Assembly (NCBI GenBank): GCA_905178155.1
Contig: CAJINV010000023.1
Location: 212,722 to 276,721 of the forward strand
Source: Amoebophrya sp. A120
Lineage: Eukaryota; Protista; Dinoflagellata
Direction: 5' to 3'
DNA length: 64,000 bases
Made by a program: the position numbers and the translations under genes. Each line of letters opens with the position of its first letter. The first letter of the stretch is position 1. This document shows, in pieces, positions 1 to 48,410 of the stretch. The notes under the pieces are model-generated. The model ran no database searches. It was not told the DNA's origin and saw nothing but the letters and a program-made list of their open reading frames with translations.

Positions 1-305
1 CAAGAAGAAGAAGTGGGATTCTAATTAAAAAAAATGGTGGTGGCAGCCGCGCGGCGAAAGCGCGGCCTGCAGGGCCGCGCTTTCGCCGCGCGGCTGGTTT
101 GGCTTTCGCGCTGGTTTGATTTTCGCGCACGCATTTGGTTACCAATATCGCCCTCCGGGCGCGATCTTCATACAAATCGCAATAGCAATACAAATTGGCT
201 CAGCATTACAAATTGAATCTGTAATGCGAATTTACCTAACCAGCTAGATTTGTAATGCATAGCTGCGATTACTACGAGTGCGATACTTTTGCACAGGATA
301 TTCAA

Positions 306-9600: not shown

Positions 9601-10468
9601 ATTACAGTGAGCTCACTCTTCCCTTCCTTGCATCACAAATTTCCCGACCCAGACATTTTTGCAATCCATATGGTTTTCCCAACGGCAAATCGTCTCCTGG
9701 TTCCAGGCGTACTACGAGAAGCATCAGCTACGCGGAGGTCCTCCCGGAGTTGTAAACATGCCGGCCGAGGAAGTGCATAGGCTGACGCTGGGCGTCCAAA
9801 AGAGCGGCGTGCTGGTCTTGCCGGAGGTGTTTTTCCAAAGCCGCAGGACGGTCGGAACTTGGGATTTTGAGTACGAGATCCGCGAAGACGGGAGCATCGA
9901 TCCCGCGCCGCGTCCTCTGCCCGACGAGGACGTGTTTACGCACGCGATGGAAGCCTTCGAGAACGAGTTTCTTTTTGCCGACACGCAGCGGGACGTGACC
10001 CACGGACGCGAAGTTGCCTTCGTCAGAGCAATCGGGTCACACCGGTGGACGCGCGACGGGAAGCGGGCGTTTGTTACAGCCATTCGCGTCTACAATATTG
10101 TCGATTTAATCTTCCTCTTAATGGTCCCGGCCGCTCGTGTGATAGACGAAGACCACACCATCGGGCAGGCGGTCAGTGGCGGTGCCGCTGGTCTCCTGTG
10201 GCTGCCGACGACGTGGTTGGTGGCGACAGGGGTGAGCGAATTAGTCCACCGACTCTTCCCAACGTTCGCCCAAGACGCGGCCGGCTGGTACCGCACCTGC
10301 GGGGAGCGCATGGACGGCTGCTGGACACGCGTCGTGGAAAAGATCACTCGAGCGGTCGTGCACGAAGATGGCCTGCAGGAGGAACTTCAGGCACCGGACG
10401 CCGGCAACGGCGCAGAAGGTGCCGGGCGGCGGGTTGTCCCTGCGGAAGTAGCAGCAGGGATGCTGTGA
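6630..10468 (+). CDS. PAP2-superfamily (lipid/dolichyl-pyrophosphate phosphatase-like) membrane protein, 7 exons, about 728 aa
   Basis: Exons 6630-7411, 7574-7746, 8007-8206, 8528-8601, 8906-9029, 9370-9410, 9676-10468 give 2187 nt of open frame. The PAP2 motif set is assembled only after splicing: K...RP (KTRLGPATIRP), PGLVSGH (C2) and ARVIDEDHTIGQAVSG (C3-like SRx5Hx3Q). Hydrophobic N-terminus MLRSTVLLLAAA. Confidence 0.72.
7412..7568. mobile_element. Introner family B (PAP2 intron 1)
   Basis: tatcctctgcaaaag...tttgcagttcata; TSD tggaa. Confidence 0.9.
7747..8001. mobile_element. Introner family A (PAP2 intron 2)
   Basis: TIR containing tctggaag / cttccaccagacccagac; TSD aggca. Confidence 0.9.
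8207..8522. mobile_element. Introner family C (PAP2 intron 3)
   Basis: Long imperfect TIR; TSD gtctt. Confidence 0.9.
8602..8900. mobile_element. Introner family D (PAP2 intron 4, splits the SGH motif)
   Basis: TSD gtgtc/ctgtc. Confidence 0.88.
9030..9364. mobile_element. Introner family C (PAP2 intron 5)
   Basis: TSD tcgac; similar to 2368-2691. Confidence 0.9.
9411..9670. mobile_element. Introner family A (PAP2 intron 6)
   Basis: tatcaaatgcaaaaatgtctgggtcggg...cccgacccagacatttttgcaatccata; TSD tggtt. Confidence 0.9.
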
Positions 10469-10798
10469 GTGAAAGCAAACTGACCACTCAGTCTTCACAT
10501 CTGGAAGGACCAACTTCACTCTTTTTGATACGCATGCCGGTGCGAGCAAAATAGAAGGCTGCTGCTACGTGGAAAAACCAAGACTCCATGTCTTGAGCCT
10601 CGTTCGTGCACCAATTATTTTTTCTTTTATCGAACAGGCACTGTGGCGACTTGCTTCAGAACGCCAAAGCGCCGCGGCTAGGGTTTTTCAGGTAATGTGG
10701 CATAGATTTTATCAAGCACTATGTATGATATTATTGCTGTACATGTACAACCAGTGGTCGTCGACACTAGGATCCACTTGTCGTACTAGTGGTCGACA

Positions 10799-11077
10799 TA
10801 TCAAATAAAAAAATGTCTGGGTCTGGAAGATTCTGAGACTTGTCACGCACGTTTTGCATGTGGTATGATGTCCGTGATGCATGCCCTAGCGTCACAGACT
10901 TTTTGAGGGCTTCGTGATACTTACCTATTCCGCATGACAAATGCCCTCTCCGCGTAGCCAAGAACAAAATTGCATTCCATTACTTGCTGGTCATGCGATA
11001 CAGATTTTTTTGGAATCCAAGTGCAGCATCACAAGTTCGGATTCTTCCAGATGACCCAGACACTTTTGCATTTGATA
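10799..11077. mobile_element. Family A element outside CDS (3' UTR or intergenic)
   Basis: Family A TIRs; TSD cgaca; 330 bp downstream of the PAP2 stop. Confidence 0.85.
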
Positions 11078-12164
11078 CGACATCATGATGTGTAGTGATC
11101 TAAGTGCTTCTATATGAATTTGTTATCTGTTTCTGTACTATGCGAAAAAAGGAAGCGGAGAAGGTGTAGGAGTGGAAAACGAACGGTAAATTTCGGAAAA
11201 AAAAAGCATATACCACTGTACGAGAAAGTAACAAATGACCCTTATGTATTTGAAAAAAAATCTTTTGCTCGTTTTGACTCTGATGCCGCGTCAACAGAAA
11301 GTGCAAGAGGAGCTTCTGTGGTCAACTACAAGGGTGCTTTGCGAAACTACAAAGAACCACCGTAGTACTTCAACATCACAAAGACCACTTTTATGCAAGC
11401 AGCACTGGCCAACATACAAAACTACTTGTACCAGAACAGGATCAAGAAACGACTACCCGTTCTCTATGTATACTCGTCTTTTTCGTGTACTTCCACTGTT
11501 GTAGAATTGACTTTCTTTTATGTAAGGATATCTTAAAAAAAATTGATTGTAATTGATTTGATCGACGCATTATATGTCGATCAAAATGTTGACTTTTATA
11601 TCTACTGCAAATTATGACATCATGGTCAAGCGGTAGATGTACAATGTCAGTCCTCTAGTACTACGCAAGAAGAGTAAACCAAATCTTGATTCAAGACAAC
11701 AAACGAAGCTGGAGGAATAAAACAATAAAAGCATGCAGCACAGTAGTAATGGTACATCACGACCAAGAGCAGGGCACCACAGTGTGGACCAGTAGTAAGT
11801 AAGTTCATTTTAGTATCTATCTGTCCCTGCTGAAGATGTGTATAATGATGTTATACCCAACATGTATGATTTGACTTTTTCTTTTTGGCTCTGACGTCAT
11901 CCCGAAAAGCAACCAGATCGCCAAAGCCTTATGCCAATGAATCTCGAAAAAAAAAAAAATCTAACCATGTAGTTGAGCAGCTCCATCTGTATCCATGAGT
12001 TGCTTTCCGATGTTGTTGTTCCCTGTCGTGAAGATCCTCTGTCTGCGCGGCGAGGAGTAAAAGTTCTTTGTCGAAGCGCATGCCAAAACTGAGAGCGATA
12101 AGTAAAAAGATGAATCACTACAAAACAAGAGTGTCAAGTATATTTTTATCTGGAATAAAATGAG

Positions 12165-15100
12165 TAGCACGACAAGATCAAGATGGACCGCAAAACCAGG
12201 CACTCTTCGCTGTTGACGTTGCATCTCGAGCGGCAGCACGCGGATATCTGCCGCGAGGTCGAAGAGTACCCCTTCTTCACCACACGGCGATACGACCATG
12301 GGAGTAGGGCGATCGCGTCCGTGCGCTGCGTCTGCCAGGAGTGTCGCCAGTTTGTCTCGCGTCGTCAGGCCAGGGGAGCGAGGGCAAGAGCGGCGTCCGG
12401 GTCTTCTTCCGTTTCAATTCCAGACTCGATTGATGGTGATGATGTTGATGTAGGGTGCGAGTCAGATGAGGACTTCGTGCTTGAGGTTGGTGCTCGGGGT
12501 GAGCCCAGCCCGGTAGCTAGACTTGTCGTGCAAACTTTGAAATATTAGCGCAACTTTATCTTGATTCGTGTAACGGCACTCGCGTCTTGACCCTGGGGAG
12601 GTGAGGATGCTTCTACACAGGATACAAGTTCCAGCTGTGCAGCAAGGCCTTTCGGAGGAATCCAAAGCCGTTCTATCTAGCGCAAGTCATCTGCGCGACT
12701 GTTGGTATTCAGTATGATCAAATATCTCCTGTTTACTTGGTCACTTTTGAAGGCTGCATTGGTATCTGTCGCGCCTGAAAATCGAAAAGGAAAAGATGAC
12801 TGTGCTGAAAAACATCAAGGATGCCTTCGAGGTCCAGGAAGCAGCGGGAGCAAAGACGAGTATTCAGGTTCGCGTGCCGAGTGAACTGCACACCCTGCCG
12901 CCGTCCGACTTTCAGACCAAGCGGTTCTGCGTGCTCGGCGGCGGCAAGACGGGAATGGACGCGGTGGTCTGGCTTCAGCGCGAGAAGGGGGTGAAACCTG
13001 AGCAAATTTCCTGGGTGGTTGGGAAGGAGACCTGGATGCTGAACCGGGAAAACCTGGCATCCCCTGGCGTGCTGGCGGACACGGTTTTGGATGCGATGTC
13101 GAAATCTGGCGTGGCGGAGACCGGCTACCTCGAAACCGCATTTGACGAACTCGCCAGAAAAAATGAAATCCGCATGGTCGACCCGACGCATCGGCCTACT
13201 GAGTTCAGGTTCCCCATTACCGACTCCGAGGAGCTGACTTATCTCAGAAAACCGAGAATAACCAAGTACCGACAGGGCTACGTGGCAAAACTGGAGCTGT
13301 TCATCAATCAAGCATCGACGGAGGACGATGGAGGAGATGAAGGTCGTCTGCGTCTCTTCGAGGAAGGACGATAGCATCTTTCTTTGAACGTGAGCCCAGA
13401 TGAAGAAGTTGCGCGACTAATAGAAGATAGATTCCCTGTTACAATTACTACCAGACTAGATACAAATTGACATCTTTTTACCAGCTAGATACAAGCTGAT
13501 GCCAAAAGAGAGGAACAACATGAGAAATCCTTAAGCCTGATGCTCTTGCACGCTTAAGATGTACGATATAACTCACTGATCCTCTGCAGGAAGATGCTGA
13601 CGAAGGAGCAAGTTGCAGGCGCAGTTGTACTAGTAACATAACCATGAGTCGCACGATATAGAGGAGCACTCTCAGAATAAAAGCAGTCCTACAGAAATCT
13701 TGAAGCTGCGGGCAGTCGTTCTCCTCGTAAAACAGTCTTGGCGGTGCATTTCTTGCCATCGTAGAACAATCCTCTCGGCGGCGGTCGAGGAGGACGCAGT
13801 TGCGGTCGAGTCGAGGAGGAGTTATTTTTTTGTAGCTGCAGTAACACATTGTGAATTGTAGGTACTCTAAATCAAACACTGTAACAAACACCACTGTCGT
13901 GGTCGAGTGCAGTGCCGCACGACGTGCCATTATGGTGGCCCCGAACCATGTTGAGCTGCTCCTGTATCCATGAGTTGTTCTTTCCCGATGTTGTTGTTGT
14001 TCCCTGTCGTGATCCTCTGTCTACTCAGCGAGTGGCAGATTTATATAGAAGTGTGTCTGAAAAGGAAGCGGAGGTCAAAACTGAGAGCAATATGGTAAAA
14101 AGATGGAACAACACTCACAACTGTCAGCCACATACTCATCTGTAGCACGACAAGATCAAGATGGACCGCAAAACCAGGCACTCCACCTGGTATGAGGAAA
14201 ACGCGTCCCGTTGGACCGCAAAACCAGTATTTTGTATGAGGAAAACGCGTCCCGTCCTCCACCTGGGACGTCTAAGATGTACTAAAGCAAAAATTGTCCA
14301 CGCCCTACATTTAGGTTTTGTAAAAAGCAGTCGAGAGGCGTCTTTTTAGAGTTGTACTTAAGCTGAGTAACAGCATCAAGTGCTCCTAGTTGGTTACAGC
14401 AACACTCGCTCGTATTTCCCTTGACTTCAGCCGCACAATAGGCGCAGACCACGTTGATGCATCTAGTTTGAATAAATGCAGTTTATACAACCCCATCTTT
14501 CTCTCCTCCACCCCTCCCAATCCTCCCGTCGCCGCTCCGCCTACTCCGTACTACAGGAGCGCGGTATGTATTGTCGTGCAAACGAAGAACTTATTTGCCA
14601 AATGTATCCGGGGACTATTCTTTTCAGCATCATCAGAAGCATCTGGTTTTGTCACGAGCGGACACGTGGAAAAGTGGAGATACGCGGCGCCCGAACCGTC
14701 AGCATCGTGAACAGTCATGTCGGTAGCGCAGTCTGGATTTGGGGGAAGGTTGGTAAGCCCCAGCTTCCACTTCGTGGCAGCATTCGCAGATATGGGAAGC
14801 GTTGCTGCCTCTTGTGCCTCGTTGTATAGCAAGGCAACAAACTTGTTCAGGTTAGCCGCTGCACTGCTGAAGTAGCAGTTTGAAATTTATAAGTAAATGC
14901 AATTCACACCAGTACGATACTTTTGCAATTTATAACCCGTCGGCGCCGTCGCGGACGAAGGAACGAAGAGAGACGAGGACGAAGTGGCAATCTAGCACTA
15001 TCTGTTCTTCAGCGTGTGCCATAAATTTATTCGTGTACGATGACCGATTTCATCTTCTAAAAATCTTCTGTTCTCCGATACTACGGATGGCATGTTCACC

Positions 15101-15515
15101 TCCTGCACAAGTGGATTCATGTACGAATAAAAACGCGCGAGTCATATGCTATATCATCTTCATGGTGCGGTAGTCGTAGTTGCTTTTGAGCTGTGCAGCC
15201 AGGGCTCTTCTTGAGTCGGTGTCGGATCCCGCTAGACAGAGCGTACATTTCACCAGAAAACATAAGTACTCACAAAGGGAAACATCAGAATGCAGTTTCT
15301 CCTCCTGGTGCCAGGATCTCGAAGGAAATGTAGGACCACCAGCAGAACGCAACTCATCCCACGTGGATGACGAACAAGAATTTATTTATAGTAGTACCAC
15401 GATCCCAGCAACGACGCCGCGCCTCAGCATGACAAACTAAAACTTGTTCGCTGATTATACGATGGACACACGTTTAGCACGACAAGATCAAGATGGACCG
15501 CAAAACCAGGCACTC
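12165..15515 (+). repeat. Three identical dispersed 41-bp repeats
   Basis: tagcacgacaagatcaagatggaccgcaaaaccaggcactc at 12165-12205, 14143-14183 and 15475-15515. Confidence 0.9.
12796..13374 (+). pseudogene. Internal fragment of an NAD(P)/FAD-dependent oxidoreductase
   Basis: Rossmann-type motif RFCVLGGGKTGMDAVVWL followed by ISWVVGKETWMLNR. The ATG lies in a copied intron segment of the P-protein gene, and no upstream FAD-binding part is visible. Confidence 0.6.
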
Positions 15516-15879
15516 AAGCTCGTTTTCTCTTGATTTTATGGTCTAGTCGTGCCATTGATTTGCGCTTCTGACTGCAACACAGCTTTCGCTGTCTGCAGGA
15601 TTGTAGTTTTTGTGCTTAGTAGTGTGCTGGTCGTGCTGCACGACAAGGCAGAAATAAAAGAAGGAGCAGGCTAAGCAGGGGCATTGATATTGAAGAAGAA
15701 GATTCGAAATCTACTCTACGGGAGGCGACCTGCGAACTGCTAAGACTGCTCTGCCGCACCTCCAAAGCGGGCGCAGCTTCGTTTCGTCTAGGCGAGCGCG
15801 GGGACAGAAAACGAATTCCTCCGCGTCTTGCAGAAAACAACCTCCATACGAACAACAAGCCCCTCGTCATTGAATCACC

Positions 15880-18800
15880 ATGGCCGCTCCTGCTCCAGAA
15901 AATGTGGAGCACCGGCAGCACTACACGCCGCGACAGCCCGGCAAGCCGCAACCCCTGCCCCAGACCCCCGGATCAGCTCGAAGCAACCGTGGAATTCTGA
16001 ATACCAACAGGATGATGCAGCTCGATCTCCCAGAGCAGGCTCTCCTAATGCTGGAGGAAATTGCCATAGAGCGGGACGAAGTCGAGCGACAGGCAGCAGG
16101 AGGTGCTCAACTACAAATAACTGGCGCGACGGCATCCTATAGTACTGGCGCCAACAAGATGGTAACTACATCTGCTGCCCCGACGAGCTCCTCCTCGCAC
16201 CTCGAATGGTTTGAGTCTCTCCTGAAGGAGTACCACGCCCGCTTGCACACCAAAGAGGGCAAGACCTTCACCAAGGTGACCGCACGGCTGAAGCATATCA
16301 AATGTAAAAATGTCTGGGTCTGGAAACTTGTGATGCCGTGTGGCGTATCATGAGGAGGCGACAATTGCTGGCTCAGCATGACAAGTTTCTGAGCTTCTAG
16401 GTGTTGCCTATTCTGCATGACAAACTACGTTTCTGCATGACAGAAAAGTGGGGCTCTTTGGTAATGTGCATGACAGATCTAAGAGTCATGCCAAACAAGC
16501 ATGACAAACTTGCATTCTTCCAGGCCCAGACATTCTTACATTTGATAAAGCAGTGGGAGAGACAGAAGTCGCTGGCCAGGCTGACCGGGGCGATCCGCAC
16601 GTATGAACTGCAAAAGTATCGTACTCGTATGAATGCATTACAAATTTCCTCAGCATGAGAAATAAGATCTGTAATGCGGATTTCCCTATAGGGAAAAGAT
16701 TTGTAATGCATGATTACAGTACAAGTGCGATAGTTTTGCACAGGATAGCACGGCCGGCGGTGCGACGTCGCGAACGCCCAGGAGTGGACGGCACAGCGTG
16801 AAGTCACAATCGAGCTTTTTCGCCTCGTCAGACAACGATGAAGATGCGCTTACCGAGGGAGCGGCTACCCCCGGGTCTGGCTATGACGAAGCAGGGGGAG
16901 AGGGAAAGCAGAAATACGCCGAAGCAATCCGCACTGAAAGTAAGAACAGCACCAAGCGCGAAGTCGAGCAGCTGCGCAAGGAGATTTCCTTATGGATGTG
17001 TCAGGATCGAAATCGACAAAATCGAAAAACTTGTGATGCATAAAATGTAGGGCACTGAAGGCCTGTATTGGGGAGCAGGCAAATGAGGGCGATTGTAAGC
17101 CTGTTTAGAGGTATACAATGTGCTGCCAGAGTAGCATGACAGAAGGAGTCTTCTTTGCCCGAACAGCATGACAGACTGGATTTGGGTGCTCCCAAAATTT
17201 GTCATGCGCCACTTGGAAACTGAGGCTCCAACTGACATCAATTTTTTGCATCACAAATTTTTCGATTTTGTCAATTTCGATTCTGACACTTCCACATTCC
17301 TTCGCTCTCTTTACACGTGGAGGTGTAGCCACTCCCATATCAAGTGCAAAAATGTCTGGGTCTGGAATAAAGTTGGAACTTGTAATGCTGGCCTTACATT
17401 CTTGTGAAATCTGTATTGCATGACCAACAAAACAAGCGGCAGCCTCTCTTGTCATACAAGAACGCAGTTTCTGATGCGGAATGCGTATGAGAAAGCGTTC
17501 TGCAAACTTGTCATGCCTTGCTGGATAAGAAAATGTTTCCATCATGCACATTTTAGCATCACAAATTTCCAGACCCAGACATTATATTTGCAATGCATAT
17601 CCCACCGCGGGTAGCAAAAACGCTGCAGGTGCTGGCGAAGCCGGAGGCGAAGTCCTCGACGGTTTGGATGGCGTCGTCCTGCACGAGGATTCAAAAGAGC
17701 TCAGCAATGCAGGAGGGACGAAAGCACAAATGGAAACGAAACCACCGCAAATGAACTTCTTCGCCCCGAAATTTACGAAGCGAGAAAAACTGACCGCGCT
17801 TGCCGCATTCCTGGTTTCCATCTTTGCAGTGGTGCTGATGTGCGTGTGGAAACCGCACCAGCCGAGCGAGGTCCTGCACACCACGCGACTATGCTCTGCA
17901 AAAGTTGCGAGTAAGTACCTGAAGAAGAAGATCGGACGGATTTTTGATGTAATTTTTATTCTCGCATCATGGCAAATCATCTCGTGGTCCCATACAACCC
18001 TTGTGTCGCTGTTTTATCCAACATTGCACTTCCGCACCCGCCGCACGTTCATCTTTCGACCATGAGATTAGTACAGTAGATCTACTTTGGCCTTGCGACA
18101 ATGATTATATTTGTCATGCAGTTATTCCACCTGACTGATGTTGGTCCTGGTGCTCCCTGCTCTCCTTTTGCGCTGCATACCGGCTGACGAAGTACAACTC
18201 TTTCATCACCAGTCCAGTCTACACCATTTCGGAGTCGCAGCCACTGGTTATGCCTTTGGAAGACCACAACAACCACGACTCCACCCACGTAGAGGTGATT
18301 GATTTGAAGATGTTTGCGGCCCAGCAGCCGCGGACCGACAGCGACTCGGTCAAGGAGAAGGTGCAATTATGAAATGCAAAAGCATCGTACTAGTATAAAT
18401 CGCATGACAAATTTCTTCAGCATGAGAAATCGCATTAGTAATGCGGATTTAACTTGAGAAAGAAATTTGTCATGCATATCTGCAATTAGTACGAGTAGTG
18501 CGATACTTTTGCAATTGATAGCAGTGGAAGATTTACAATTCCCTCAACGAGGTCGTAAAGTCTGGGAGCCTATCAAGTGTAAAAATGTCTGGGTCTGGAA
18601 GAATGCGCGACTTGTCATGCAGATTTTCCATGACCCATAAGGTGTTGAATGCAGGGCCTAGCATGACAGATTCCGCGCGATCTCTGTCATGCCTATCCTG
18701 CATGAGAAACTCCCTCCCGACTTGGTCAAAACTGGACGACTTTTGGTAATCATGCAACACAGATTTTCACATGCTTCAGATTTAGCATGACAAGTTGCGT

Positions 18801-21800
18801 TCTTCCAGACCCAGACATTTTTACGTTTGATAGAGCCTGCTGCTTTCGAAGGACGAAGAAGTGGAGTATTTCGAGACCCTCGATGTGGAAAGTCTCCATC
18901 CCGTCAAAGCCGAATTCACCCTTACGCGCGAGACGACAGCCGGCGTCGCCCTGACGGGACACACCGACTTTCTCGGGTTGAAAGTGCAACTCGTCTGCTT
19001 CACCTGGTTGGGCAAGTGGCGACTGTACTTCGCCGTGATTTTGTTCCTCGGCACCTTCGCGCTGATCATCTCAGAGGTTGTCCACCGTGTGTACGTCACC
19101 TTGGTCGCGGCCACGATCGGGTTGTTTCTGAACTCCGTGGTGCACGAACAAATTCACTTGAAAGAAACCATAGCGATGATTGACTTCGGAACCCTGCTAT
19201 CCACTGCAACAATATGTGTCTGGGTCTGAATTTGTGATGAGAGATCTGTTGAAGAACGCCAAGATCATCTGTGATGCAGGAATACGAGTGGTCAGCGTCA
19301 GTGTGTGATGTTGTGAAACTTTCCTCTACCTCCGTGTCTGTTTCATATGACTTTTCCGAATGCATCTGCAATAGGCCTCTCGGAAAATTTTTCATGCTGT
19401 TATGCAGTACAAGGACAAGCCGCTTTTACAACCTTTGCGTTGATGCGATCCGAGCTTCGGCAGCAGAAATTTCCAGACCCAGACAAATTTCCAAATCATA
19501 CCTGATGCTCCTCTTCTCCATGATGATCAATGTGAATTTCCTCGCGCAAACGGGCTTCTTTCAGTGGTTCAGCTATCCTGGTGCAAAAGTATCGTACTCG
19601 TACTTCAATAAAATCCCAGTCATGCAAGGCAAAGCTCTTTTCGAAGCTAAATCAGCATGACAAGAATTCAGTTTGTCGAGTTCAGTTTGTCATGCTCCTG
19701 AGCCAATTTGTATTGCAGTTTTTACTACGTAGTGCGATACTTTTGGGTTGCATATCATCGTGAAAATCGTCATTTTTTCGAAATGTGACGTACGCAAGCT
19801 GTTTTTCCTCCTTGCCAACATCACGGGCATACTCTCCGCTTTCCTCGACAACGTTACCGTCGTCATGCTGATGGGACCGCTCACTTTATCCTGTGTAGAA
19901 ACGACCTCGTGGTCTCCCTGTACTAGGTAGCAGATTTGGCATGATTACTTATGGCGATTCGCTACCATATTACCAAGACCAATTATGATGCGTCTCCTTA
20001 ACATTTTTCATTTTGAGTGGCATTTCCCCGCTCCGCGGAGCCAGACTTGTCGTGCAAACTTTGAAATATTAGCGCAACTCTATCTTGATTCGTGTAACGG
20101 CAGTCGCGTCTTGACCCTGGGGAGGTGAGGATGCTTCTACACAGGATACAAGTTCCAGCTGTGCAAAGCCTTTCGGAGGAATCCAAAGCCGTTCTATCTA
20201 GCGCAAGTCATCTGCGCGACTGTTGGTATTCAGTATGATCAAATATCTCCTGTTTACTTGGTCACTTTTGAAGGCTGCATTGGTATCTGTCGCGCCTGAA
20301 AATCGAAAAGGAAAAGATGACTGTGCTGGAAAACTAAGTAATCCTATTCCTAAAAGTCCGCAACTACACGACTGCAGGTGGCACCTCGACCCTGATAGGC
20401 GATCCCCCCAATATCGTTATCGGCTACAAGCTGAAGATATCAAATGCAAAAATGTCTGGGTCTGGAAGAGTACAAACTTGTGATGCGCATTTCAAGACAC
20501 AGAAAGATCTCTCTCTCATGCATAGTTAGCAAAAGCTGTCCAGTTTCTGCCACCAAGATGGGGCGACATTTGTCATGCGGATTCGGCATTGCGAAAGTTT
20601 CTCGAAACCCGTGATGCTAGAGCTCCCATGCCAGACCTTCTGTGTCATGCAAAAACAGCATGACTCTTCCAGACCCAGACATTTTTACATTTGATAGAAG
20701 GTTGGCTTCGTCGATTTCCTGATCTACAACGCCCCCCTGATCGTCGTTTTGCTTCCCCTGTCTAGTTATGAACTGCAAAAGTATCGTAATAGTAGTAATT
20801 GCAATACAAATTAGCTCAGCATGACAAATGGAATTTGTCATGCTGTTTTGCCTTGGGATGAAGATTTGTAATGCATGACTCCTGCGATTACTTACTACGA
20901 GTACGGTACTTTTGCACAGGATACTAGTTACCTGCTGTACCGCCAGTTCCGGGAGGAGATTCTTGCCGGAGATATTCCGAGTAAAAACATCCCCATCCCA
21001 GAGTTGTCATGCAAATTTGCATGCCAAAAAAGTTTCTCATGCGAAGCCCCATGAGAAGCTTTTTCTAGTCGTGTTTTGGGATTTGTGATGCTAGAAATAG
21101 CATGATATGCTAGATCTGTGATGCTGCTGAACTAGCTAAACAGGACTCCACTACGAGGACAAACTTGTCATGCGAGACAACCAAAGTTGGCCGATTTGTC
21201 TAGCAGATTTTCCACGTTGACTCTGGTATGGGGACGTTTTTACTCAGGATAGGAGAGCCGGATGACGAGGTAGAGGATCAGGATGATCTACGAAGAATAA
21301 ATTTGCAAGAACAGGATGAAAACCAAGCGAAGCCTCCGCAGCTTCAGCCAGATGGTGCCATGGCTCCTGCAAAACAAGCCGATGCGATCGTGGTGACCAC
21401 TGCAACGGAGGATGAGAAAGGCCATATGAAGATGAGCGTGCGCAACTTCCTATACCCCTATTTCCTCAGTCTTCATGTCCAAGTCCAGTGTAAGTGACCC
21501 TTGAGCAGCAACGGAAGCACTTGTAAGAACACTACGAACACCAGCTAGTAAGTATGTAGCCTGTGCATAACGTGACTACATGCGGTGACTGCAGTACGGT
21601 CTGCAAAAGATCGCGCAGGATAAAGTCACGATTTGCCTTTTTTTGCATGACGAATGAGAGGCACGAACAGGGGGTGGATTTTTGCGCCGTGATATGCCAA
21701 GAACCCCTGCAACTTCCAATAACGCAAAGAGATCACGCAACATCATCAAACATCGCCGACGCGGCCGACTCCAGAACCTCTCAGGAGGCTGTTGGGCAGC

Positions 21801-24800
21801 GAAGCACCCGGAGCAACGCGAGCTATTCGTCATCCGCTTCCTCGAACGGGGTGGTGTTTGTCGACTTGGAAAAACTCAAGCGCGACAACCGGATCACCGA
21901 TCACTACATGCTCCTCAAAGTCACTGCGGTGTTTGCGGGCATTTTCCTGGCCCTCTGCCTTTCTATCAAATGCAAACATGTCTGGGTCTGGAAGAATGCA
22001 AGGTTTGTCATGCTTGTCTGGCATGACTGAACAGTTTGTGATGGTGCGTGTCCAAGAAGAGACACTCGTGCGTGTCATGCAACAACGCAGTTTGTCATGC
22101 GGAAAGCGCGACACTAAGCAGCGCAGATATTTCTCATGCTTGGCTGTGCATTACAGAGTCTGCGCTATTCCCCACCCAGCATTACAAGTTTCCAGACCCC
22201 ATTTTGCAATGCATACTTTCCCCGGTGCACCAACAAGAGGCAGCGTGGTTCACGTTCTTGGGAATGCTGCTGCTGTGTTATCAAAAGGAAAAATCCCCCC
22301 CCCTACCGAAAACGAAACTTGTGTTGCTGTATTTGAGCTACACAAATTGACTTGTATTGCTAGAACGCCAAGAGACGCAGTTGTTCCCTCTTTTGCAGGC
22401 AATTTGTCATGCTGTCTGCTTTTCCAGTTGCCTCCTGTCATTCTGAAGACGCAAGGCTTTCCTACGCCACTCAGCACTACAGTCCGCTTCTTTTGCCTTC
22501 TAGCATGACAAAATGATTTGTGGTCTCAAATCATGCTACACAAATCGCCGTCTCAGTATGGGGAGAGGGGATTTTTCATTTTGATATGTGTTTTCTCCTC
22601 ACCAGTCACGAAATCCACCACGTTTTGGAGTCCGTGGAGTATCCTGAGTAAAAACGTACCCACGCCAGAGTTGTAATGCAGATACAGATTCGCAAAGACA
22701 GGAAGACTTGTAAAAATGCGCATCCCCATGATAGCCATTTCCAATTGTGTTTTGGAATTTGTGATGCTGTGAACAGGATGAGCAGCTGGATTTGTGACGC
22801 GGCTGCACTTGCTAGCCTGCACTACACTGCAGTGCGTTCAACTTGTCATGTGTGACTCACAAAACTCCTAGGTTTGTGTTGCAAAATCCTCATTTTGATT
22901 CTGCTGGTGTGGGTACGTTTTTACTCAGGATATGGAGTGGGACGTGCTCATGTTTTTCGCGTCCCTTTTCGTACTGGTCGAGTGTCTATGCATTGCAAAA
23001 GTGAAGTCGCACTGTGCGTCGATTGCAATTACAATTTTTTATTTCAAGAAGAAATTCGACGTAAGTTCCCACGCCAAATTGATCAGGTAGGAGGGTTACG
23101 TTATGAAACTTGTCATGCCCATAAATTGCAATTTATTACATCTTCAAATGCGATATATGAACTTTTGCAGCGGATAGCGTCTCGCCGAGCTCGGTTTGAT
23201 TCGACTAGTTGGCGAGTGCATTTCGAACGTGATCTCGTCCATCGATGACGAAAGCGCCCGACTTCCGGTGGCGATGCTGCTCATCCTCTGGGTGAGCTCG
23301 ATGGGCAGCGCGTTTTTGGAATCCCTGCCGTACACGACGACGATGTGCTACCTGCTGCTCGCGCTGAAGACGGAGGAGGACACAACGAATAAACTGGGCT
23401 TCGAGGTTATGCAATACAAATAATTTTCCGTACATGTACAAGCGGCATCACAAATTTCACCAGTTTGGAGTGCTGTAAGTAACACGACGATAATTAGCCA
23501 AGTCGCGTTTTTTGCGACTTGGCTAATTCGAATTTCCGGGCTGTTTGGCTACTCGGGCCTGTCCATAGACAGCTTCTGGGCTCTCGAATTAGCCAAGTCC
23601 GGGAGATACTTAGCCAAGTCGCGTTCTTTGCGACTTGGCTAATTCAAATTCCCGGGCTGTTTGGCTTCTCGGACCTGTCCATAGACAGCTTCTGGGCTCT
23701 CGAATTAGCCAAGTCTGGGAGATAATTAGCCAAGTCACGTTTTTTGCGACTTGGCTAATTCGCATTCCCAGGCTGTTTGGCTTCTCTGACCTGTCCATAG
23801 ACAGCTTCTGGGCTCTCGAATTAGCCAAGTCCGGGGGATAATTAGCCAAGTCGCGTTTTTTGCGACTTGGCTAATTCGCATTCCTGGGCTGTTTGGCTAC
23901 TGGGACCTGTCCATAGACAGCTTCTGGGCTCTCGAATTAGCCAAGTCCGGGAGATAATTAGCCAAGTCGCGTTTTTTGCGACTTGGCTAATTCGAGTTCC
24001 CGGGCTGTTTGGCTACTCGGACCTGTCCATAGACAGTTTCTGGGCTCTCGAATTAGCCAAGTCCGGGAGAATGTCATGCTAAACTAGGATCGAGCCCCAG
24101 TTTTGTCATGCAGAGATGGCATTTGTACGTCGTGTACGGGAAATTTACTGTGGATAGTGGTCGAAAACTTGTCCTACGCGCTCTCGGTTGGCGCTTGCAT
24201 CGGGGGGATCGGGAGCATCATGGGATCTAGCGTTATGCTGTGTGGAAAACCACTCAATTTGCAGCTTTTTTATCTTTGCTAGTACTAGATCGGCGTCGGC
24301 GTACTCGAGGGCAAAAAAACTTTGTCTTCATCATCATCAAGAATCTCGAACGCAATTTCTCACACTGAAATGACTCAGTCCCACATAGAGAGCCTCTGCT
24401 TCCAGGATCTGACTTGAGCATGTTCGTCGACGTCCTACAACGCCCACTTCTAATCTACGACTTTTGATAACCATTGCGCTTCCTTTAGAAGTTGTTTTCC
24501 GACAGCTCGTGCATACTTGCTAACCTCGTGGCGATGGGGATCTGCTCCAGGTACCTTCCTATCAAATGTAAGTAAAAATGTCTGGGTCTGAGAGAATGCA
24601 ACTTGTCATGCTAAATCTGAAGCATGCAAAAATCAGTGTTGCACGATTGCCAAAAGTCGTCCAGTTTTGACCAAGTCGGGGGGGAGTTTCTCATGCAGGA
24701 TAGGAATGAGAGAGATCGCACAGAATCTGTCATGCTAGGTCCTGCATTCCAGACCTCATGGGTCATGGAAAAGCTGCGCGACAAGTCGCGCATTCATCCA

Positions 24801-25013
24801 GGCCCAGACATTTTTGCTCTTCCCTGTGCTGTACCATGGTCTTGCTTCCAGACAAAACACCAGACATTTTTGCACTTGATACTTCCCGCAGACGCCCCCC
24901 TGCACCACAAGATCCAGGGCAAGGACTTTTTGAAGTACGGCTTTCCCGTGTTGCTGATCTTGACGGCGGTCAGCTCGGTGTACCAGTATGTGATTTTTTC
25001 AGTGGTGCAGTAA
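15880..25013 (+). CDS. OCA2/P-protein-like membrane transporter (ArsB/NhaD/CitMHS ion-transporter superfamily), 23 exons, about 1032 aa
   Basis: Manual splice. Exons with element plus downstream TSD removed: 15880-16295, 16553-16601, 16753-16990, 17302-17337, 17605-17889, 18185-18367, 18526-18570, 18838-19197, 19506-19573, 19760-19886, 20154-20225, 20378-20437, 20702-20766, 20929-20972, 21257-21424, 21700-21963, 22221-22278, 22592-22639, 22938-22986, 23182-23407, 24162-24233, 24521-24559, 24887-25013. Total 3099 nt, open frame, TAA stop. P-protein-like motifs: SEVVHR, IDFGTL(M/L)LLFSMM, LSAFLDNVT, VGGTSTLIGDPPNIVI, VEWDVLMFFASLFVL, YALSVGACIGGIGSIMGSSANLV, FLKYGFP. Exact junctions can slide within the TSDs. 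Confidence 0.88.
16296..16547. mobile_element. Introner family A (P-protein intron 1)
   Basis: TSD aagca. Confidence 0.9.
16602..16747. mobile_element. Introner family B, reverse orientation (intron 2)
   Basis: tatgaactgcaaaag...ttttgcacaggata; TSD gcacg. Confidence 0.9.
16991..17296. mobile_element. Introner with long TIR (intron 3)
   Basis: tatggatgtgtcaggatcgaaatcgacaaaatcgaaaaa / tttttcgattttgtcaatttcgattctgacacttccaca; TSD ttcct. Confidence 0.9.
17338..17599. mobile_element. Introner family A (intron 4)
   Basis: TSD tccca. Confidence 0.9.
17890..18179. mobile_element. Degenerate introner (intron 5)
   Basis: tatgctctgcaaaag / cttttgcgctgcata; TSD gcgac/ccggc; frame restored. Confidence 0.75.
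18368..18520. mobile_element. Introner family B (intron 6)
   Basis: TSD gcaat/gcagt. Confidence 0.85.
18571..18832. mobile_element. Introner family A (intron 7)
   Basis: TSD gagcc; inverse copy of 24560-24881; same orientation as 59819-60094. Confidence 0.9.
19198..19500. mobile_element. Introner family A-like (intron 8)
   Basis: TSD cctgc/cctga. Confidence 0.85.
19574..19754. mobile_element. Introner family B (intron 9)
   Basis: TSD tcagc/tcatc. Confidence 0.85.
19887..20148. mobile_element. Introner (intron 10)
   Basis: Perfect 14-bp TIR tatcctgtgtagaa / ttctacacaggata; TSD cactt/caagt. Confidence 0.85.
20226..20377 (+). other. Canonical GT-AG intron (P-protein intron 11)
   Basis: gtattc...ctgcag; joins TVG-GTSTLIGDPPN in frame; no TIR. 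Confidence 0.8.
20438..20696. mobile_element. Introner family A (intron 12)
   Basis: TSD gaaga/gaagg; inverse-orientation relative of 7747-8001. Confidence 0.9.
20767..20923. mobile_element. Introner family B, reverse orientation (intron 13)
   Basis: TSD ctagt. Confidence 0.9.
20973..21251. mobile_element. Introner family D (intron 14)
   Basis: TSD ggaga. Confidence 0.9.
21425..21694. mobile_element. Degenerate introner (intron 15)
   Basis: tatg...gata ends with residual gcgcaa..acccc / ggggt..ttgcgc IR; TSD ggcca/tgcca; frame restored. Confidence 0.65.
21964..22215. mobile_element. Introner family A (intron 16)
   Basis: TSD ctttc. Confidence 0.9.
22279..22586. mobile_element. Introner family C (intron 17)
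   Basis: TSD tgtgt. Confidence 0.9.
22640..22932. mobile_element. Introner family D (intron 18)
   Basis: tatcctgagtaaaaacgtacccac / gtgggtacgtttttactcaggata; TSD tggag. Confidence 0.92.
22987..23176. mobile_element. Introner family B-like (intron 19)
   Basis: TSD gtgtc/gcgtc. Confidence 0.85.
23408..24156. mobile_element. Introner containing a tandem array (intron 20)
   Basis: tatgcaatac..ttttccgtaca / tgtacgggaaatt..ggata; TSD gaggt/gtggt. Confidence 0.8.
23490..24069. repeat. 5 x 116-bp tandem repeat with internal hairpin
   Basis: Units start at 23490, 23606, 23722, 23838 and 23954. Consensus includes aattagccaagtcgc-gtttttt-gcgacttggctaatt. Confidence 0.95.
24234..24515. mobile_element. 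Degenerate introner (intron 21)
   Basis: tatgctgtgtggaaaac / gttttccgacagctcgtgcata; TSD agcgt/cttgc; restores GSSANLV. Confidence 0.75.
24560..24881. mobile_element. Introner family A (intron 22)
   Basis: TSD cttcc; partly duplicated right TIR. Confidence 0.9.
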
Positions 25014-26168
25014 CTCTAACTTACTACATTGAGAGCGAATTATAACTCCAAGGCCGGTGCTGCGAGAAAAGAACTTGAAGATCATGGTGCTGGTGTTGAG
25101 CAACTCCTTTGGCAATTCTTCTGCGCCACTCCTTTGGCAATCCTAATTTTGGAAACAAAAGGAAAGAAATGGTAACTGTAGACGTAGAAATATCAAAATC
25201 AAACTGAAAGAAAACAATTGGATTTGCTTAGCGGTACTCGGATGTGAAGTGGTAAACAAGCGCCAGCAAGCATCAGCGTCATGATCCATAGCAAGAAAGT
25301 AGCTCGGTCGTAGAATGTAACATTGTGATTGTCTTGAGCGTCGTGGTCCCTCTACACCGACACCTTCTTGGTATGAGTATTTCTGTTTCTCATTCCATTT
25401 GGAAAAATAGACTGAAGGTGAAGATGTTATCGGGGTCCGTTGACCAGAATCCAATATATCGGTTTCTGTTTTTTTTTCTTGGCTTTCAACGTCGGGCTCG
25501 GGAGCGCAATGGAATATGGAGACGGTCTTTTTCAGCGCTTTACCCCAGAAATGTCGGTTGTGGGTGGTCGAGTCAATTTGTCGTGTAGTTTTCGGGTTAA
25601 ATAGAGTGGAACTAAAACCGACCTTCCTTGCAGTTCCTGCAATTGTATCTCCAGGTAGGTGACGATGAAATTCCCAGCAGTCGTCGATATAAGTAGCCCA
25701 CCACTTTCCCTCATCAATATTCCTCCGTGCCATTTTCAACATTCCTTGTTGTTTAGAAGCTGCTCCGGGACGACCTTGTAGTACCCGTTTTTTTTTCTGT
25801 ACGACCAGCTGCACGTGTCCTGGTGCAACAACTCGGGGTTAGTAGCTCCGGGTAATACAAGTGAGTGTCTCATTTTGGCGCATTATCGAGGCTCAAAACG
25901 ACGCTCTTGAGCCCCGCTCCGCAGTCTAACAGAGTAGGTAGGGGGAATTTGATTGCTTCTACGTTTATCGTTTCTGCGAGCCAGCTGCACTGCATTCTGC
26001 TCACCAAAAATGAAGTCATCTGTTTCCCCGTCCAAGGCCCCCACCTCCGGGAGGAAAACAAGCCACCACCGCGCCCCCTCCTTGGAGTTGCAGCGTGCGG
26101 GCCTCACCGCTTTGACCTCCGGCGGTGCAGCCGATGTGCGACACTGCTCACCGCGGTTGCAGAGGGCA

Positions 26169-27597
26169 ATGGCGAATTTCCTTGTGCCGGCGCTGCTCAA
26201 CAAGAAGGGCAGTGACCCGGAAGACGACGTGAGATACCGAAATCAAAACAGAAGGCTGAGGACCGACAAGCACACGGAGTCGGCGCCGGTCTTTCTTCCA
26301 TCATCAGACGAAAATGGATCTTCATCCGCGACCTCGAGCTACACTGGCGGTGGGCGCGCCGGTGGGGCACTGCTAGATCGAGGAGCAGGAGCAGCGCCGG
26401 GTAAAAGCAATATGCGAAGCAGCGGCAGTCAGAACTACCGAATAGGAGGTGGGAGCAAACACCTCTACCCCGTGCCGGAAACCCCGAATATGAAGATACC
26501 GTCGCCAGTATCAACCGGAATTAAAGTGTTAAAACGTTGAGAACTCGGAATATGTGATGCGATAAAACATTCAAAACCAAAAGCAAAAGGATGAAGAATT
26601 ATAGTACACTGTCACTGATATTTGTATTGCTGAGCACCCATGATGAAAGGAAAAATCTGTCATGCGTGATCGTACTTACATAGTGAAAGCATCAAAACCG
26701 TGAACGTTAAAACACCTTTGCGAGTGATAGCTGGCAAAAAGGGTAGATCTGGACGCGCACCAGAAGTGGATGCAGTATGCGGAGCCACCATATCCTGTGC
26801 AAAAGTATCGTACTCGTATTGCAATCATGCATTACAAATTTTCTTGTTAAGTCAAATCCGCATTACAAATTTTGTTTCTCATGCTGAGACAATTTGTCAT
26901 GCATTTATACGAGTACGATACTATTGCAGTTCATACACCACGTATAAAACCAATATGTGAAGAGGAGGACAGAAGTTTGATGGTTTTCTTGTTGCAGCTG
27001 CATGACAAATCGCTGTTCTGTTGCTGTTTCCTTTGTGTTTGTTATTCTATCTATCGATAAAGTGATCTTATCACACTACAGAGGGCCACTTCCCCCACCC
27101 CACGAAAGCGAACGAGAAAGGCTTGCCGTTTTCTCCGACCAAAAACGCGAGGGACCACCTCAAGCACCCGAGTTCCCCCTACCGAGATCAGCCCCCACTA
27201 CCCGACCATTTCCTCAAGCCCTGCTCCAACACCTCCCCGATTCTCTACAACTGCTTTCACAAAAAGGACACCACAGACGTGTACGAGTGGCAACAGCGCG
27301 AGTTTAATTGGTTCGTCGAGGCGCAGCATAAGTTCAACCAGGAAGTCAAGCACTTGCTAAACCCCAACTCAAACTGCCGCGCACCGAAAAATATCCTGTG
27401 CAAAAGTATCGCACTCGTAGTAATCGCAAACATGCATTACAAAGCGTGCTCTTAAGGTAAACCCGCATTATTTGTCGTGCTGAGGAAATTTGTAATGCAT
27501 TTATACGAGTGCGAAACTTTTGCACTGCATAAAAAACTACATGCACGCGACCACGTACAGATTTTTGCTACTCCTGCATGATCGCGCTTTGCTTTAG
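26169..27597 (+). CDS. Hypothetical protein, about 255 aa, 3 introners plus 1 GT-AG intron
   Basis: Exons 26169-26508, 26735-26790, micro-exon at 26941, 27082-27391 and 27537-27597 give 768 nt of open frame. No recognisable domain. The 3' end is uncertain. Confidence 0.55.
26509..26729. mobile_element. Degenerate introner
   Basis: tatca..gtgttaaaacgtt / aacgttaaaacac..tgata; TSD gccag/gctgg. Confidence 0.7.
26791..26935. mobile_element. Introner family B
   Basis: TSD cacca. Confidence 0.9.
27392..27531. mobile_element. Introner family B
   Basis: TSD aaaaa. Confidence 0.85.
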
Positions 27598-27662: not shown

Positions 27663-29380
27663 CACGGCGCAACATCCTCGGCCTCTAAAGATATCCCCGT
27701 TGCATTCGGAACGCAAAGAAAGGCTTTCCACATGTTATCACCTCTCGGCACTCGCCTAGCGGAGGGTTGGCGGAGGGCAAGTTGCAGTCGATCAGATCCA
27801 GAATTAGCTGGGTGGAGTAGTAAAAGCGCAAAGTGCTTACTTTTTGACAGCAGATGTCGTTTATTCTTAAACTTCTTCTACCAGGGCGGTACTGCGATTC
27901 TGCATGTGCCGTCTACACCCTCCGCCACCCCTCCGCAGTTGCTCAGCATGTTCCTCATAGCGTGCTGAATTTTGAAAAAATGCAAAACCGACAAAAAAGC
28001 GAAAAACAAAAGGAAAAACCCATAAAAAGCTTTTCAGCATGCTATCACCTCTTGACAGTCGCGTAGCGGAGGGTGGGCGGAGGGCAAGTTGGAGTCAAAT
28101 AGACCCAGCATCAGCTGCGGATAACACTAAAAGTGCAAAGTGCTTACTTTTTGACAACAGATGCCATTTATTCTTAAACTTCTTCTACCAGGGCGGTACT
28201 GCGATTCTGCATGTGCCGTCTACACCCTCCGCTACCCCTCCGCAGTTGCTCAGCATGTTCCTCATAGCATGCTGAATTTTGAAAAAATGCAAAACCGACA
28301 AAAAAGCGAAAAACAAAAGCAAAAACCCATAAAAAGCTTTTCAGCATGGTATCACCTCTCGACACTCGCGTAGCGGAGGGTGGGCGGAGGGCAAGTTGCA
28401 GTCAAATAGACCCAGCATCAGCTGCGGATAAAACTAAAAGCGCGAAGTGCTTACTTTTTGACAGCAGATGCCATTTATTCTTAAACTTCTGCCAGCAGGA
28501 CGGCACTGCGATTCTGCGTGTGCCGTTTACACCCTCCGCTACCCCTCCGCAGTTGCTGGGCATGTTCCTCGTAGCATGCTGAATTTTGGAAAATTGCAAA
28601 ACCGACAAAAAAAACGAAAAACTAAAGTAAAAACACATAAAGAGCTTTTCAGCATGGTGTCACCTCTTGACACTCGCGTAGCGGAGGGTGGGCGGAGGGC
28701 AAGTTGCAGTCGAATAGACCCAGCATCAGCTGCGGATAGTACTAAAAGTGCAAAGTGCTTACTTTTTAACAGCAGATGTCTTTTACTCTCAAACTTCTGC
28801 TACCAGGACGGCACTGCGATTCTGCATGTGCCGTCTACACCCTCCGCTCCCCCTCCGCAGTTGCTGGTCATGTTCCTCATAGCGTGCTGAATTTGGAGAA
28901 CTTGCAAAACCGACAAAAAAGCGAAAAACAAAAGTAAAAACACAACAAGAGCTTTTCAGCATGGTGCCACTTCTTGACAATCGCCTAGCGGAGGGGTGGC
29001 GGAGGGCAAGTTGCAGTCGATTAGATCCAGAATTAGCTGCGGATAGTACTAAAACTTCAAAGTGCTTGCTTTTTGGCAGCAGATGCCATTCATCATTAAA
29101 CTTCTGCAACCAGGACGGCACTGCGATTCTGCATGTGCCGTCTACACCCTCCGCTACCCCTCCGCAGTTGTTGGGCATGTTTCTCATAGCATGCTAAAAT
29201 TTGAAAACTTGCGAAACCGACAAAAAAGCGAAGAACAAAAGTAAAAATACACAAAAAGCTTCACGGCATGGCAACACCTCTTGGCACTCGCCTAGCGGAG
29301 GAGGGGCGGAGGGCGAGTTGCAGTCGATTAGACCCAGAATTGATAGCTGCGGATAGTACTAAAAGTGCAAAGTGCTTACG
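27663..29380. repeat. About 307-bp satellite array 1 (about 5.4 units) with a unique head
   Basis: Unit markers recur near 27731, 28038, 28345, 28653, 28960 and 29267. Confidence 0.92.
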
Positions 29381-34090: not shown

Positions 34091-35389
34091 ACTGATTATA
34101 TGCAATTTGCAAAAACTAAAAAAAAATTCAATCACGCATATACAAAATTCTTGTATTGCATTGAATCACGTGGTTGGTTTCGCGCAACGCGGAGCTGGCG
34201 AAGTAGTATTAGTTGATGAAGAAAAATTTTTGAAATTGCTCTGGAGGTGGATTCTGCCATACCTATCACTTGTAAGTAGAACTAAAAGCGGAAACTGCAT
34301 AACAGTGATTAGTATGTTTCTGATGCGTGTTTTCATCGATTGCGACTTCGAAACGAATCTGCGTATTATCGTGTAGCCGATCATTCTCGATTGTTTAGCA
34401 AACTTATCGAAATCTTTGTGACCCTGAGGTTGCGAATGAGAATGACAGCTGAAGACGAAAGAGGAAAACAAAAGCAACTCGACCGTAAAAAGGATCTCGC
34501 AGATTAGAACCAAGGGACCTCGTTCGAATCGATTTGCAAGTCCCTATTGGACGGAGATGGAGCTCGACGTATGAAAGCGTTGACGTTGTATTTTAGTATC
34601 GCGCTCGTCACTGAAGCAATGTTTATCTTGCTGAAGATCTAAATCCATATTGATACATAGATAAAATTGCGCACTCACGAAATAAAAGTGAAAAGAAAAC
34701 GTGTGGCGAAGTGTGTTCTTTTCCGTCATTATTTGTTGTTTTTACCACGACTGGGACCAGGAAGCGATGACGCAGCATAGACTTTGAGTACCGGCGATTC
34801 GTCGGATGTTTCAATTCCTCGTGTTGCGTTTGGTCGCCTAAAGATAAACTGAGTAAATTTTGACTATGATGGCCATGGCAATGCAAGCCATCGGTGACCG
34901 TCTCCGTCTCCTTTGTGGTGCATTGTCGTTCTACAGCCAGCTGTGGAGGTCTTTGAGCAACTACGTCATTACCGTCACCGACTCGATGGACGCCTGGCTC
35001 CGGACCCTACTCATCTGGTTAGCAGCTGTTCTCAGAACCGCTCTCGGGCATGGATCAAACCCCTCCTGGAAAGCAGTTCTGACATTGTTGCAACTGGCAT
35101 TTTACGTTCTTGCAAAACTCCGATCATGTCATTATCAAGACGTTGAACGAACATGCATTCCAAAAAAAGCTGTTTCACAACTAATCATGCTGGAGTGAAA
35201 TAATGATACGCATTTATTTGATTCTGCTTGTATCTAGTAGATTCTTTTGTTTCTGAAAAATCGGAATATCACACCCGCATGAAAGTTGCAGAAGCAGTAT
35301 CATTTTCCTTGTTACTGTTTTCTGTTCTTGATCTTGGAGGAAAAGTAAACGCACTACCGTTGAGTAGAAAAGCTGCCACCATTTGGTAA

Positions 35390-48260: not shown

Positions 48261-48410
48261 TATGAACTGCAATAATATCGTACTCGTATAAGTGCATGGC
48301 AAACTTTCTCAGCATGACAAATAAAGTTTGTATATGCGGACTTTCTTCAAGAAGAAAATTTGTCATGCATGAATGCAATTACTACGACTATGGTACTGTT
48401 GCACAGGATA
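48261..48410. mobile_element. Introner family B, reverse orientation
   Basis: TSD ggcgg/ggtgg. Confidence 0.85.

Follow-up and report, generated by a model that had tools for sequence, protein, structure and literature searches.

Inverse copies of introners are removed from sense transcripts of Amoebophrya sp. A120 in both orientations, probably at one cut register

How can an intron be cut exactly out of a sense transcript when its sequence may lie in either direction? The question is raised by a 64,000-nt stretch of the genome of Amoebophrya sp. A120 (GCA_905178155.1, contig CAJINV010000023.1, 212,722 to 276,721, forward strand), called the window here, within which all positions are counted. 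Its introners share one layout: a core TAT...ATA with inverted ends, an A-run at positions 11-13 of these ends, and a 5-bp direct repeat outside. They are designated below by their first position. The plus-strand transporter gene P0001 (Table 1) contains introners 16602, 18571, 19574, 20438, 20767 and 24560; its exon 18834-19193 is 100% identical to the deposited A120 protein and 66% identical to the protein of strain A25. A second plus-strand gene, P0003 (6630-10468), contains 7412 and 7747, and its exon 7101-7406 matches a second deposited A120 protein at 100%. From the letters of the DNA, an original prediction had proposed that the same introner is tolerated in both orientations in sense transcripts, and that excision must therefore depend on a symmetric signal.

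Introners 18571 and 24560 are indeed reverse-complement copies within one gene (18575-18824 against 24821-24572, 90.4% identity over 250 nt, E 1e-94), and 7747 and 20438 are likewise inverse (7747-7994 against 20696-20445, 82% over 255 nt, E 7e-66). Introner 24560 is the inverse of 18571 without being its equal in length: it measures 322 nt, not 262, as its right (3') end is extended by about 56 nt that include a second subterminal repeat. The translated string QKSSSFDQVG(R/G)EFLMQDR, which had been noticed on opposite strands, lies on the minus strand in the 18571 copy and on the plus strand in the 24560 copy; it is without coding meaning. The two starts given earlier for family B also reflect orientation, as the seven copies align once 16602, 18368, 20767 and 48261 are reversed, although the start of 19574 (tatcctggtgc) is one base longer than had been claimed.

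Removal was read from contigs of four runs, X1-X4, which come from one sample, were guessed to be RNA and are called transcript-like here. They were compared with the window over 18300-25000, and X5, a DNA-like run, served for comparison. In these contigs the core and five further bases are missing exactly. Among the rows listed, 15 of the 16 elements of this interval were bridged, the sixteenth being 19887, for which the rows give the upstream edge, and at least 15 joints were each present in 4/4 runs, 14 skipping an element and one a GT-AG intron. Contig removal was seen for 18571, 24560, 20438 and 20767 (four-run joints) and for 19574, which was bridged in X4 alone via adjacent pieces of one contig. 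With both members of the inverse pairs 18571/24560 and 19574/20767 bridged, the same introner is removed in both orientations from sense transcripts, as predicted. Contigs of X5 run through elements (e.g. 18808-20072). A GT-AG intron at 21490 in the first gene model was discarded, as it broke the frame and the contigs show introner 21425-21694 there instead. Near-identical ends occur in the neighbouring introns 18571, 20438, 21964 and 24560; none of the 15 joints listed combines ends from either side of an exon. X9 and X10, two recent raw RNA runs that bear the same species label as X5, gave 3 and 2 reads on 7300-27200, all at repeat ends; they speak neither for nor against removal and probably represent a different lineage or contain little of this organism.

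Orientation relative to host transcription was counted in a wider set, comprising the window and at least 144 loci from one other assembly (pattern scan over 19/64 parts). This set holds 344 distinct elements. The detector demanded at least 3/5 matching duplication bases; the match was 5/5 in 281 elements, 4/5 in 55 and 3/5 in 8, and no element was detected in 318,504 shuffled bases. A codon model assigned the host strand for 289 of the 344 elements (55 were dropped), and 262 of 283 strong calls agreed with the majority of their locus. Most stranded elements (265/289) come from the loci of the other assembly and were counted from genomic sequence, their strand being that of the codon model. 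All 12 families with at least four members among the 289 were present in both orientations. For the six largest the counts were 41/47, 28/14, 20/15, 12/14, 11/3 and 10/4; the largest is unbiased, and the 28/14 split is that of family B (p 0.044, uncorrected). Element pairs of at least 85% identity comprised 164 in the same and 147 in inverse orientation, the closest inverse pair being 97% identical.

The position of the cut was deduced from elements whose two flanking duplicates differ. If k is the number of bases retained from the left duplicate, nine elements are informative, and they allow k of 4-5, 0-4, 3-4, 1-5 or 2-5 (Table 1). The sole register compatible with all nine junctions is k=4, while k=3 and k=5 each fit 6/9; were the cuts independent, the probability of one common register would be 0.022. 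The result was unchanged when 19887 was omitted. Family B allows k of 4-5 in each of its two orientations. By k=4 alone, P0001 is reproduced over 744 aa with 0 mismatches, and other registers give 1-6 mismatches. By parsimony, four bases from the left duplicate and a single base from the right would stay in the mRNA, restoring the coding sequence at any target. The predicted intron is thus likely to be N-TAT...ATA-NNNN, with cuts 1 nt ahead of the 5' TAT and 4 nt beyond the 3' ATA, an asymmetry that the original prediction had missed. The offset appears to follow transcription and not the direction of the element. At two junctions, 19193-19197 and 20433-20437, the duplicate retained in the intron carries the A25 residue (L and I, respectively) at duplication position 5, and the transcript copy carries M and V; at positions 2-4 in other junctions, it is the kept copy that agrees with A25.

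In the window, 27 introns are supported, that is, their removal is documented by contigs or deposited proteins. They have TAT at the 5' end in 27/27, ATA at the 3' end in 25/27, and A at positions 11-13 in 23-25/27 per end. At k=4 their first base would be T in 9, C in 9, A in 7 and G in 2, and 22 of them end without AG (5/27 with AG); among the 289 stranded elements, 7 would be GT-AG. Because of this register, U and A fall on +2 and +3, as in GUA donors. The prediction agrees with Table S4 of Farhat et al. (PMC7789003), where 18 of 18 predominant non-canonical splice pairs have T at the second position (A25: TT; A120: GT, CT, AT, TT).

Strand-specific signals were then sought inside the elements. 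On the sense strand 29 of 289 elements have the motif YTRAY at -45..-15, on the antisense strand 32, and the pyrimidine fraction is 0.575 and 0.582, respectively, which bears out the claim that removal uses neither a strand-specific branch motif nor a strand-specific pyrimidine tract. No enrichment of U2-type hallmarks (branch consensus, pyrimidine tract, AG) on the sense strand was found. The target does not supply the signal either: G at duplication position 5 was found in 70 of 236 perfect duplications, as against 57-86 at nearby positions. As there is no strand-specific or target-derived signal, the signal should lie in the symmetric termini. The motif GCATNACW, found 502 times in sense and 499 times in antisense (13.8 per kb inside elements and 1.4 outside), is more likely a transposase site.

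The termini can pair with each other. Young copies (18571 and 24560) fold end to end in either orientation, with the z-scores given in Table 1. Between 9 and 30 pairs are expected between the ends in 26/26 supported introns folded (23408 was omitted for its length), compared with 0.14 in the GT-AG intron; a control with shuffled ends was noisy (mean 6.7 pairs, maximum 18.9), so that the weakest stems are not shown to exceed chance. The terminal TAT:ATA is predicted to be unpaired (P <=0.01) in four supported introns out of 27, of which three are absent from the contigs, and the whole-intron folds of three contig-removed introns are no better than those of shuffles (z -1.0, -1.7 and -0.3). An enrichment of G-U as a mark of selection on the RNA stem was looked for and was absent; the skew is reversed, with 174 G-U and 230 A-C juxtapositions on the sense strand (sign-flip p 0.007). 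The sense duplex is no stronger than the antisense duplex (124 versus 141, p 0.2). The stem probably helps removal; its selection as RNA is not supported.

Several explanations of these data were weighed. The contigs might report no RNA splicing at all but derive from DNA that had lost the elements by excision or had always lacked them, such as that of a different allele, strain or life stage. This would suit the guessed nature and single origin of X1-X4 and the 3 and 2 reads of the raw RNA runs. Yet the GT-AG intron 20226-20377 is likewise absent from these contigs, which marks them as spliced mRNA; moreover their exon match has no other letters, their junctions are mosaics (positions up to 4 from the left copy, position 5 from the right) that reproduce the deposited protein exactly, and X5 reads through the elements. 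We regard an origin from DNA as very improbable. Ordinary co-option, in which an orientation persists only if GT/GC and AG for a normal spliceosome are provided by the element or by its target, deserves as little credit. Introners of this type in two orientations are published, and some elements do have the letters (AG at 5/27 ends, GT-AG in 7/289). The mixed first bases and the 22/27 ends without AG speak against it, as do the lack of AG or G enrichment in the 236 perfect duplications and the fact that 0/14 element joints are GT..AG at the listed positions. The most serious rival is a hairpin ruler independent of the spliceosome, as proposed for Euglena: the ends would pair, a separate nuclease and ligase would set the cuts 1 nt ahead of the stem and 4 nt beyond it, and a circle would be released. 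The stem in 26/26 introns, the strong folding of young copies and the missing G, AG, branch and pyrimidine signals all fit, as do the failure to detect U1 in A120 (PMC7789003) and an offset signature of the same type in Euglena, N3CDG-/-CH'GN5-6|R, defined by knock-in (PMC12501133). What lowers its standing to a possible but lesser explanation is that TAT:ATA is predicted to be unpaired in 4/27 introns, three of them contig-removed, that three removed introns fold like shuffles, that G-U is rarer than A-C and the sense duplex not stronger, and that T at +2 is common to two strains with different repeats.

We favour, with a probability of roughly 0.55, a relaxed spliceosome lacking U1 that cuts introners at one fixed register by reading their mirror-image ends. 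The elements would have originated as non-autonomous DNA transposons. Their 5' terminus may be taken as the donor, with N-U-A at +1..+3 in place of G-U-A; the end-to-end stem would replace U1 and the acceptor-defining factors, and the 3' cut would be measured from the terminal AUA. Orientation would be irrelevant because the same terminus stands at both ends. The need for a symmetric signal in the original prediction is upheld, as it rests on the terminal repeats; to take it as evidence against spliceosomal chemistry, or for a hairpin in particular, is not supported, because a signal within the terminal inverted repeat, including a branch nucleotide, is present in both orientations by construction, from which no hairpin-based or non-spliceosomal mechanism follows. 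In favour of this reading, A120 and A25 both have T at +2 in Table S4 despite their different repeat ends (A25, with TTA ends, would reach T+2/A+3 from another offset than A120), and the same register yields ordinary GT-AG introns where the target supplies the letters (7/289). A branch at a fixed short distance (-8) from the 3' cut has a precedent in a preprint on Entamoeba invadens.

Differences between the two ends were also sought. Singly, positions 4-30 did not differ between 5' and 3' ends (all p >0.09). TATYAR was present at the 5' end only in 54 elements and at the 3' end only in 26 (p 0.002), and over positions 4-16 the 5' end was slightly nearer the consensus (153 versus 113, p 0.011). 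Among 273 elements from a relaxed detector, changes in the terminal triplet numbered, by position, 0, 1 and 7 at the 5' end as against 4, 2 and 1 at the 3' end read as its mirror image (post hoc Fisher p 0.010); the initial T at the 5' end is invariant and its mirror A varies in 4. None of the supported window introns varies at the 5' TAT.

A number of observations weigh against the spliceosomal reading. No individual junction fixes k=4, as each sets bounds to k; 18571, 24560 and 20767 have perfect duplications and are silent on the register, and codon scores of 47 single-mismatch duplications from the other assembly did not tell the registers apart. No acceptor is selected: of 236 perfect duplications, 22 have AG at positions 3-4, compared with 9-27 at the positions nearby; an apparent excess at these positions in the window (5/27) was gone in that larger set. 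A selected YTRAY with A at -7 was also rejected as a branch consensus (104 sense, 132 antisense), and this A is not essential, being G in the protein-supported intron 9030-9364. The asymmetry of the ends was tested post hoc on non-independent family members, and strand-biased mutation could yield the same skew. The four last-A variants come from genome sequence, the last A being present in 27/27 supported window introns, and the asymmetry is weakened further by two protein-supported introns that the relaxed detector overlooked, 16991-17296 (ending in ACA) and 9030-9364 (ending in GTA). The T at +2 and the A at +3 also belong to the transposon's invariant end, so an explanation by splicing is not needed for them, and the 9-30 predicted end-to-end pairs would fit a hairpin-only mechanism equally well. 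Finally, no transposase or autonomous partner with the same ends was found in the window or the 144 loci; a 4.2-kb long-element candidate in locus L063 proved to be two elements flanking a host exon, and other long-element matches were chance pairings.

A bolder version of the spliceosomal reading, which we put forward tentatively and hold to be doubtful, makes the terminus the whole code: N-UA would be read at the 5' cut, the reversed terminus (AUA) would serve as the branch, the 3' cut would follow a fixed four bases on, and A25, starting from another terminus, would have arrived at the same U+2/A+3 code. If this were true, any copy in any orientation at any target would be a seamless intron, and the genome would be immune to insertions of this transposon class. 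One register independent of orientation and target letters predicts the position of the lariat or circle junction, the three key bases and the annotation of tens of thousands of introns. Such a rule would explain how elements could fill genes at almost no cost.

The elements of the window are the published introners of A120, and the system as such was already known. Farhat et al. 2021 (PMC7789003) describe an inverted repeat of TAT, seven variable bases and AAA, direct repeats of 3-5 nt at the borders, a length of ~240-300 nt, predicted hairpins and many families. The window elements agree in organism, TAT-N7-AAA terminal repeat, border repeats, removal without GT-AG and family structure. They also have the properties of MITEs (miniature inverted-repeat transposable elements), being short, non-coding and of high copy number, with terminal inverted repeats and a target duplication of fixed length. 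Summed over elements, the depth in X5 exceeds that of unique DNA by factors of hundreds to thousands, which is not a copy number. According to the genome paper (PMC7789003), roughly two thirds of the introns in A120 are non-canonical and their removal was left open, 15% of canonical introns contain such repeats, splice positions are termed variable or unknown with no clear signature in the text, U2, U4, U5 and U6 were detected and U1 was not, and A25 repeats start with TTA, with ends TTA-purine-purine. In Gozashti 2025 the introners of A120 are attributed to diverse transposons, of which some have terminal inverted repeats and integrase-like homology; the Mikina review, as regards Amoebophrya, restates Farhat. 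To this same system the counts in both orientations and one register for all informative junctions are added here, and the single 4+1 register and the orientation balance are the novel part, the elements and two-orientation introners having been published before. No statement on either point in Amoebophrya was found in the literature searched, although Farhat figures 3 and S19-S23 and the Gozashti supplements may hold part of it; in the text of Farhat et al., 'strand' has 0 matches and the passages listed for 'orientation' refer to genes.

Two-orientation introners are described for Polarella glacialis, where they are transposon-derived, have target duplications and include several classes in either orientation (Roy et al., bioRxiv 2020.10.14.339549), and, as cited there, for Aureococcus anophagefferens; the method of Gozashti 2022 allows opposite-orientation matches. 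According to these accounts, Polarella and Aureococcus introners obtain GT/GC/GA and AG either from their own sequence or from the target, frequently in several frames, and their simple two-orientation classes favour one orientation, whereas in A120 target letters are not needed, one register fits and the largest family is unbiased. The canonical or near-canonical donor and AG acceptor of those introners are not a feature of the window elements. The nonconventional introns of Euglena, for which a MITE origin is suspected (PMC12501133; review PMC11282704), share with A120 the absence of GT-AG, paired inverted motifs at unequal offsets and direct repeats that blur the borders. They differ in having offsets of 3 and 5-6, CDG/CHG and a purine after the cut, and are released as circles (PMC12501133); in A120 the predicted offsets are 1 and 4, the motifs TAT/ATA, and no such purine bias is seen (A, C, G and T number 57, 71, 57 and 51 after duplication position 5, and 75, 54, 70 and 37 at it). 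Ends of the form N-TAT...ATA-N4 do not carry the Euglena signature. The MITE-derived introns of Fritillaria borealis (PMC11282704) share inverted repeats and target duplications and are removed by an adapted spliceosome; they prefer the ends AG-AC/AG-AT and a fixed TAC target, while the target in A120 is free.

Table 1. Positions of the host gene, introners and related features in the window, with flanking duplications, registers allowed by unequal duplicates and joints in the transcript-like contigs
Feature	Coordinates	Strand	Duplication	Allowed k	Joint	Remarks
Host gene P0001	15880..25013	+				1032-aa CitMHS-domain (PF03600) membrane transporter, deposited A120 protein; interrupted by 21 introners and a single GT-AG intron
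Family A introner, core TAT...ATA	18571..18832	+	GAGCC, perfect		18565>18833, 4/4 runs	predicted intron 18570-18836; fold z -12.0
Family A introner, inverse of 18571	24560..24881	-	CTTCC		24554>24882, 4/4 runs	predicted intron 24559-24885 (plus-strand transcript); fold z -6.2
Family A introner, inverse of 7747 and 18571	20438..20696	-	GAAGA/GAAGG	0-4	20432>20697	
Family A introner in P0003	7747..8001	+				protein support only
Family B introner, TATCC end first	19574..19754	+	TCAGC/TCATC	4-5		adjacent pieces 19501-19572 and 19759-19885, X4 record 12
Family B introner, TATGA end first, inverse of 19574 and 7412	20767..20923	-	CTAGT		20761>20924	
Family B introner, TATGA end first	18368..18520	-	GCAAT/GCAGT	4-5	18366>18525	
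Family B introner, TATGA end first, in P0001	16602..16747	-				protein support only
Family B introner, TATCC end first, in P0003	7412..7568	+				protein support only
Family B element, TATCC end first	26791..26935	+				host strand plus by codon model only
Family B element, TATGA end first	48261..48410	-				host strand plus by codon model only
Degenerate introner	19198..19500	.	CCTGC/CCTGA	0-4	19192>19501	terminal 20 nt predicted unpaired
Introner	19887..20148	.	CACTT/CAAGT	4-5		left copy kept to position 4; contig piece ends 19885; P0001 allows 3-6
Canonical GT-AG intron	20226..20377	+			20224>20377	without end-to-end stem
Introner	20973..21251	.	GGAGA, perfect		20967>21252	
Degenerate introner	21425..21694	.	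GGCCA/TGCCA	1-5	21420>21696	fold z -0.3
Introner	21964..22215	.			21958>22216	family of 16296-16547 in opposite orientation
Introner	22279..22586	.	TGTGT, perfect		22273>22587	
Introner	22640..22932	.	TGGAG, perfect		22634>22933	
Introner	22987..23176	.	GTGTC/GCGTC	2-5 (at least 2)	22983>23179	
749-nt introner with five 116-bp tandem copies	23408..24156	.	GAGGT/GTGGT	2-5	23404>24159	still exactly removed
Oldest-looking introner	24234..24515	.	AGCGT/CTTGC (4/5 differ)	3-4	24231>24519	fold z -1.0

In a Pfam scan of 25 window proteins P0001 (CitMHS) alone was above the cut-off, an Rfam scan of the window gave 0 matches, and the family B end had 0 matches in viral contigs. Other repeats are present in the window. 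An 866-nt element at 51173-52038 has a perfect 5-bp flanking repeat (ACAAG) and inverted ends TTAGGG, and resembles the TTA-purine-purine ends of A25 rather than the TAT type of A120. A second transposon class is represented by 35389-36886 and 1515-2069, which have long inverted arms (96 nt at 98% and 55 nt at 98%, respectively), common GAGCGG ends and flanks that are apparently TAA and TAG triplets; these elements may be PIF/Harbinger-like. A 299-nt copy (97%) of 20039-20334, containing the end of an introner, one transporter exon and the start of the GT-AG intron, lies 7.5 kb upstream at 12515-12813. Arrays of ~308-bp units occupy 27719-29379, 31999-34075 and 56457-57647; the first two are related (~86%), and the third shares short motifs only.

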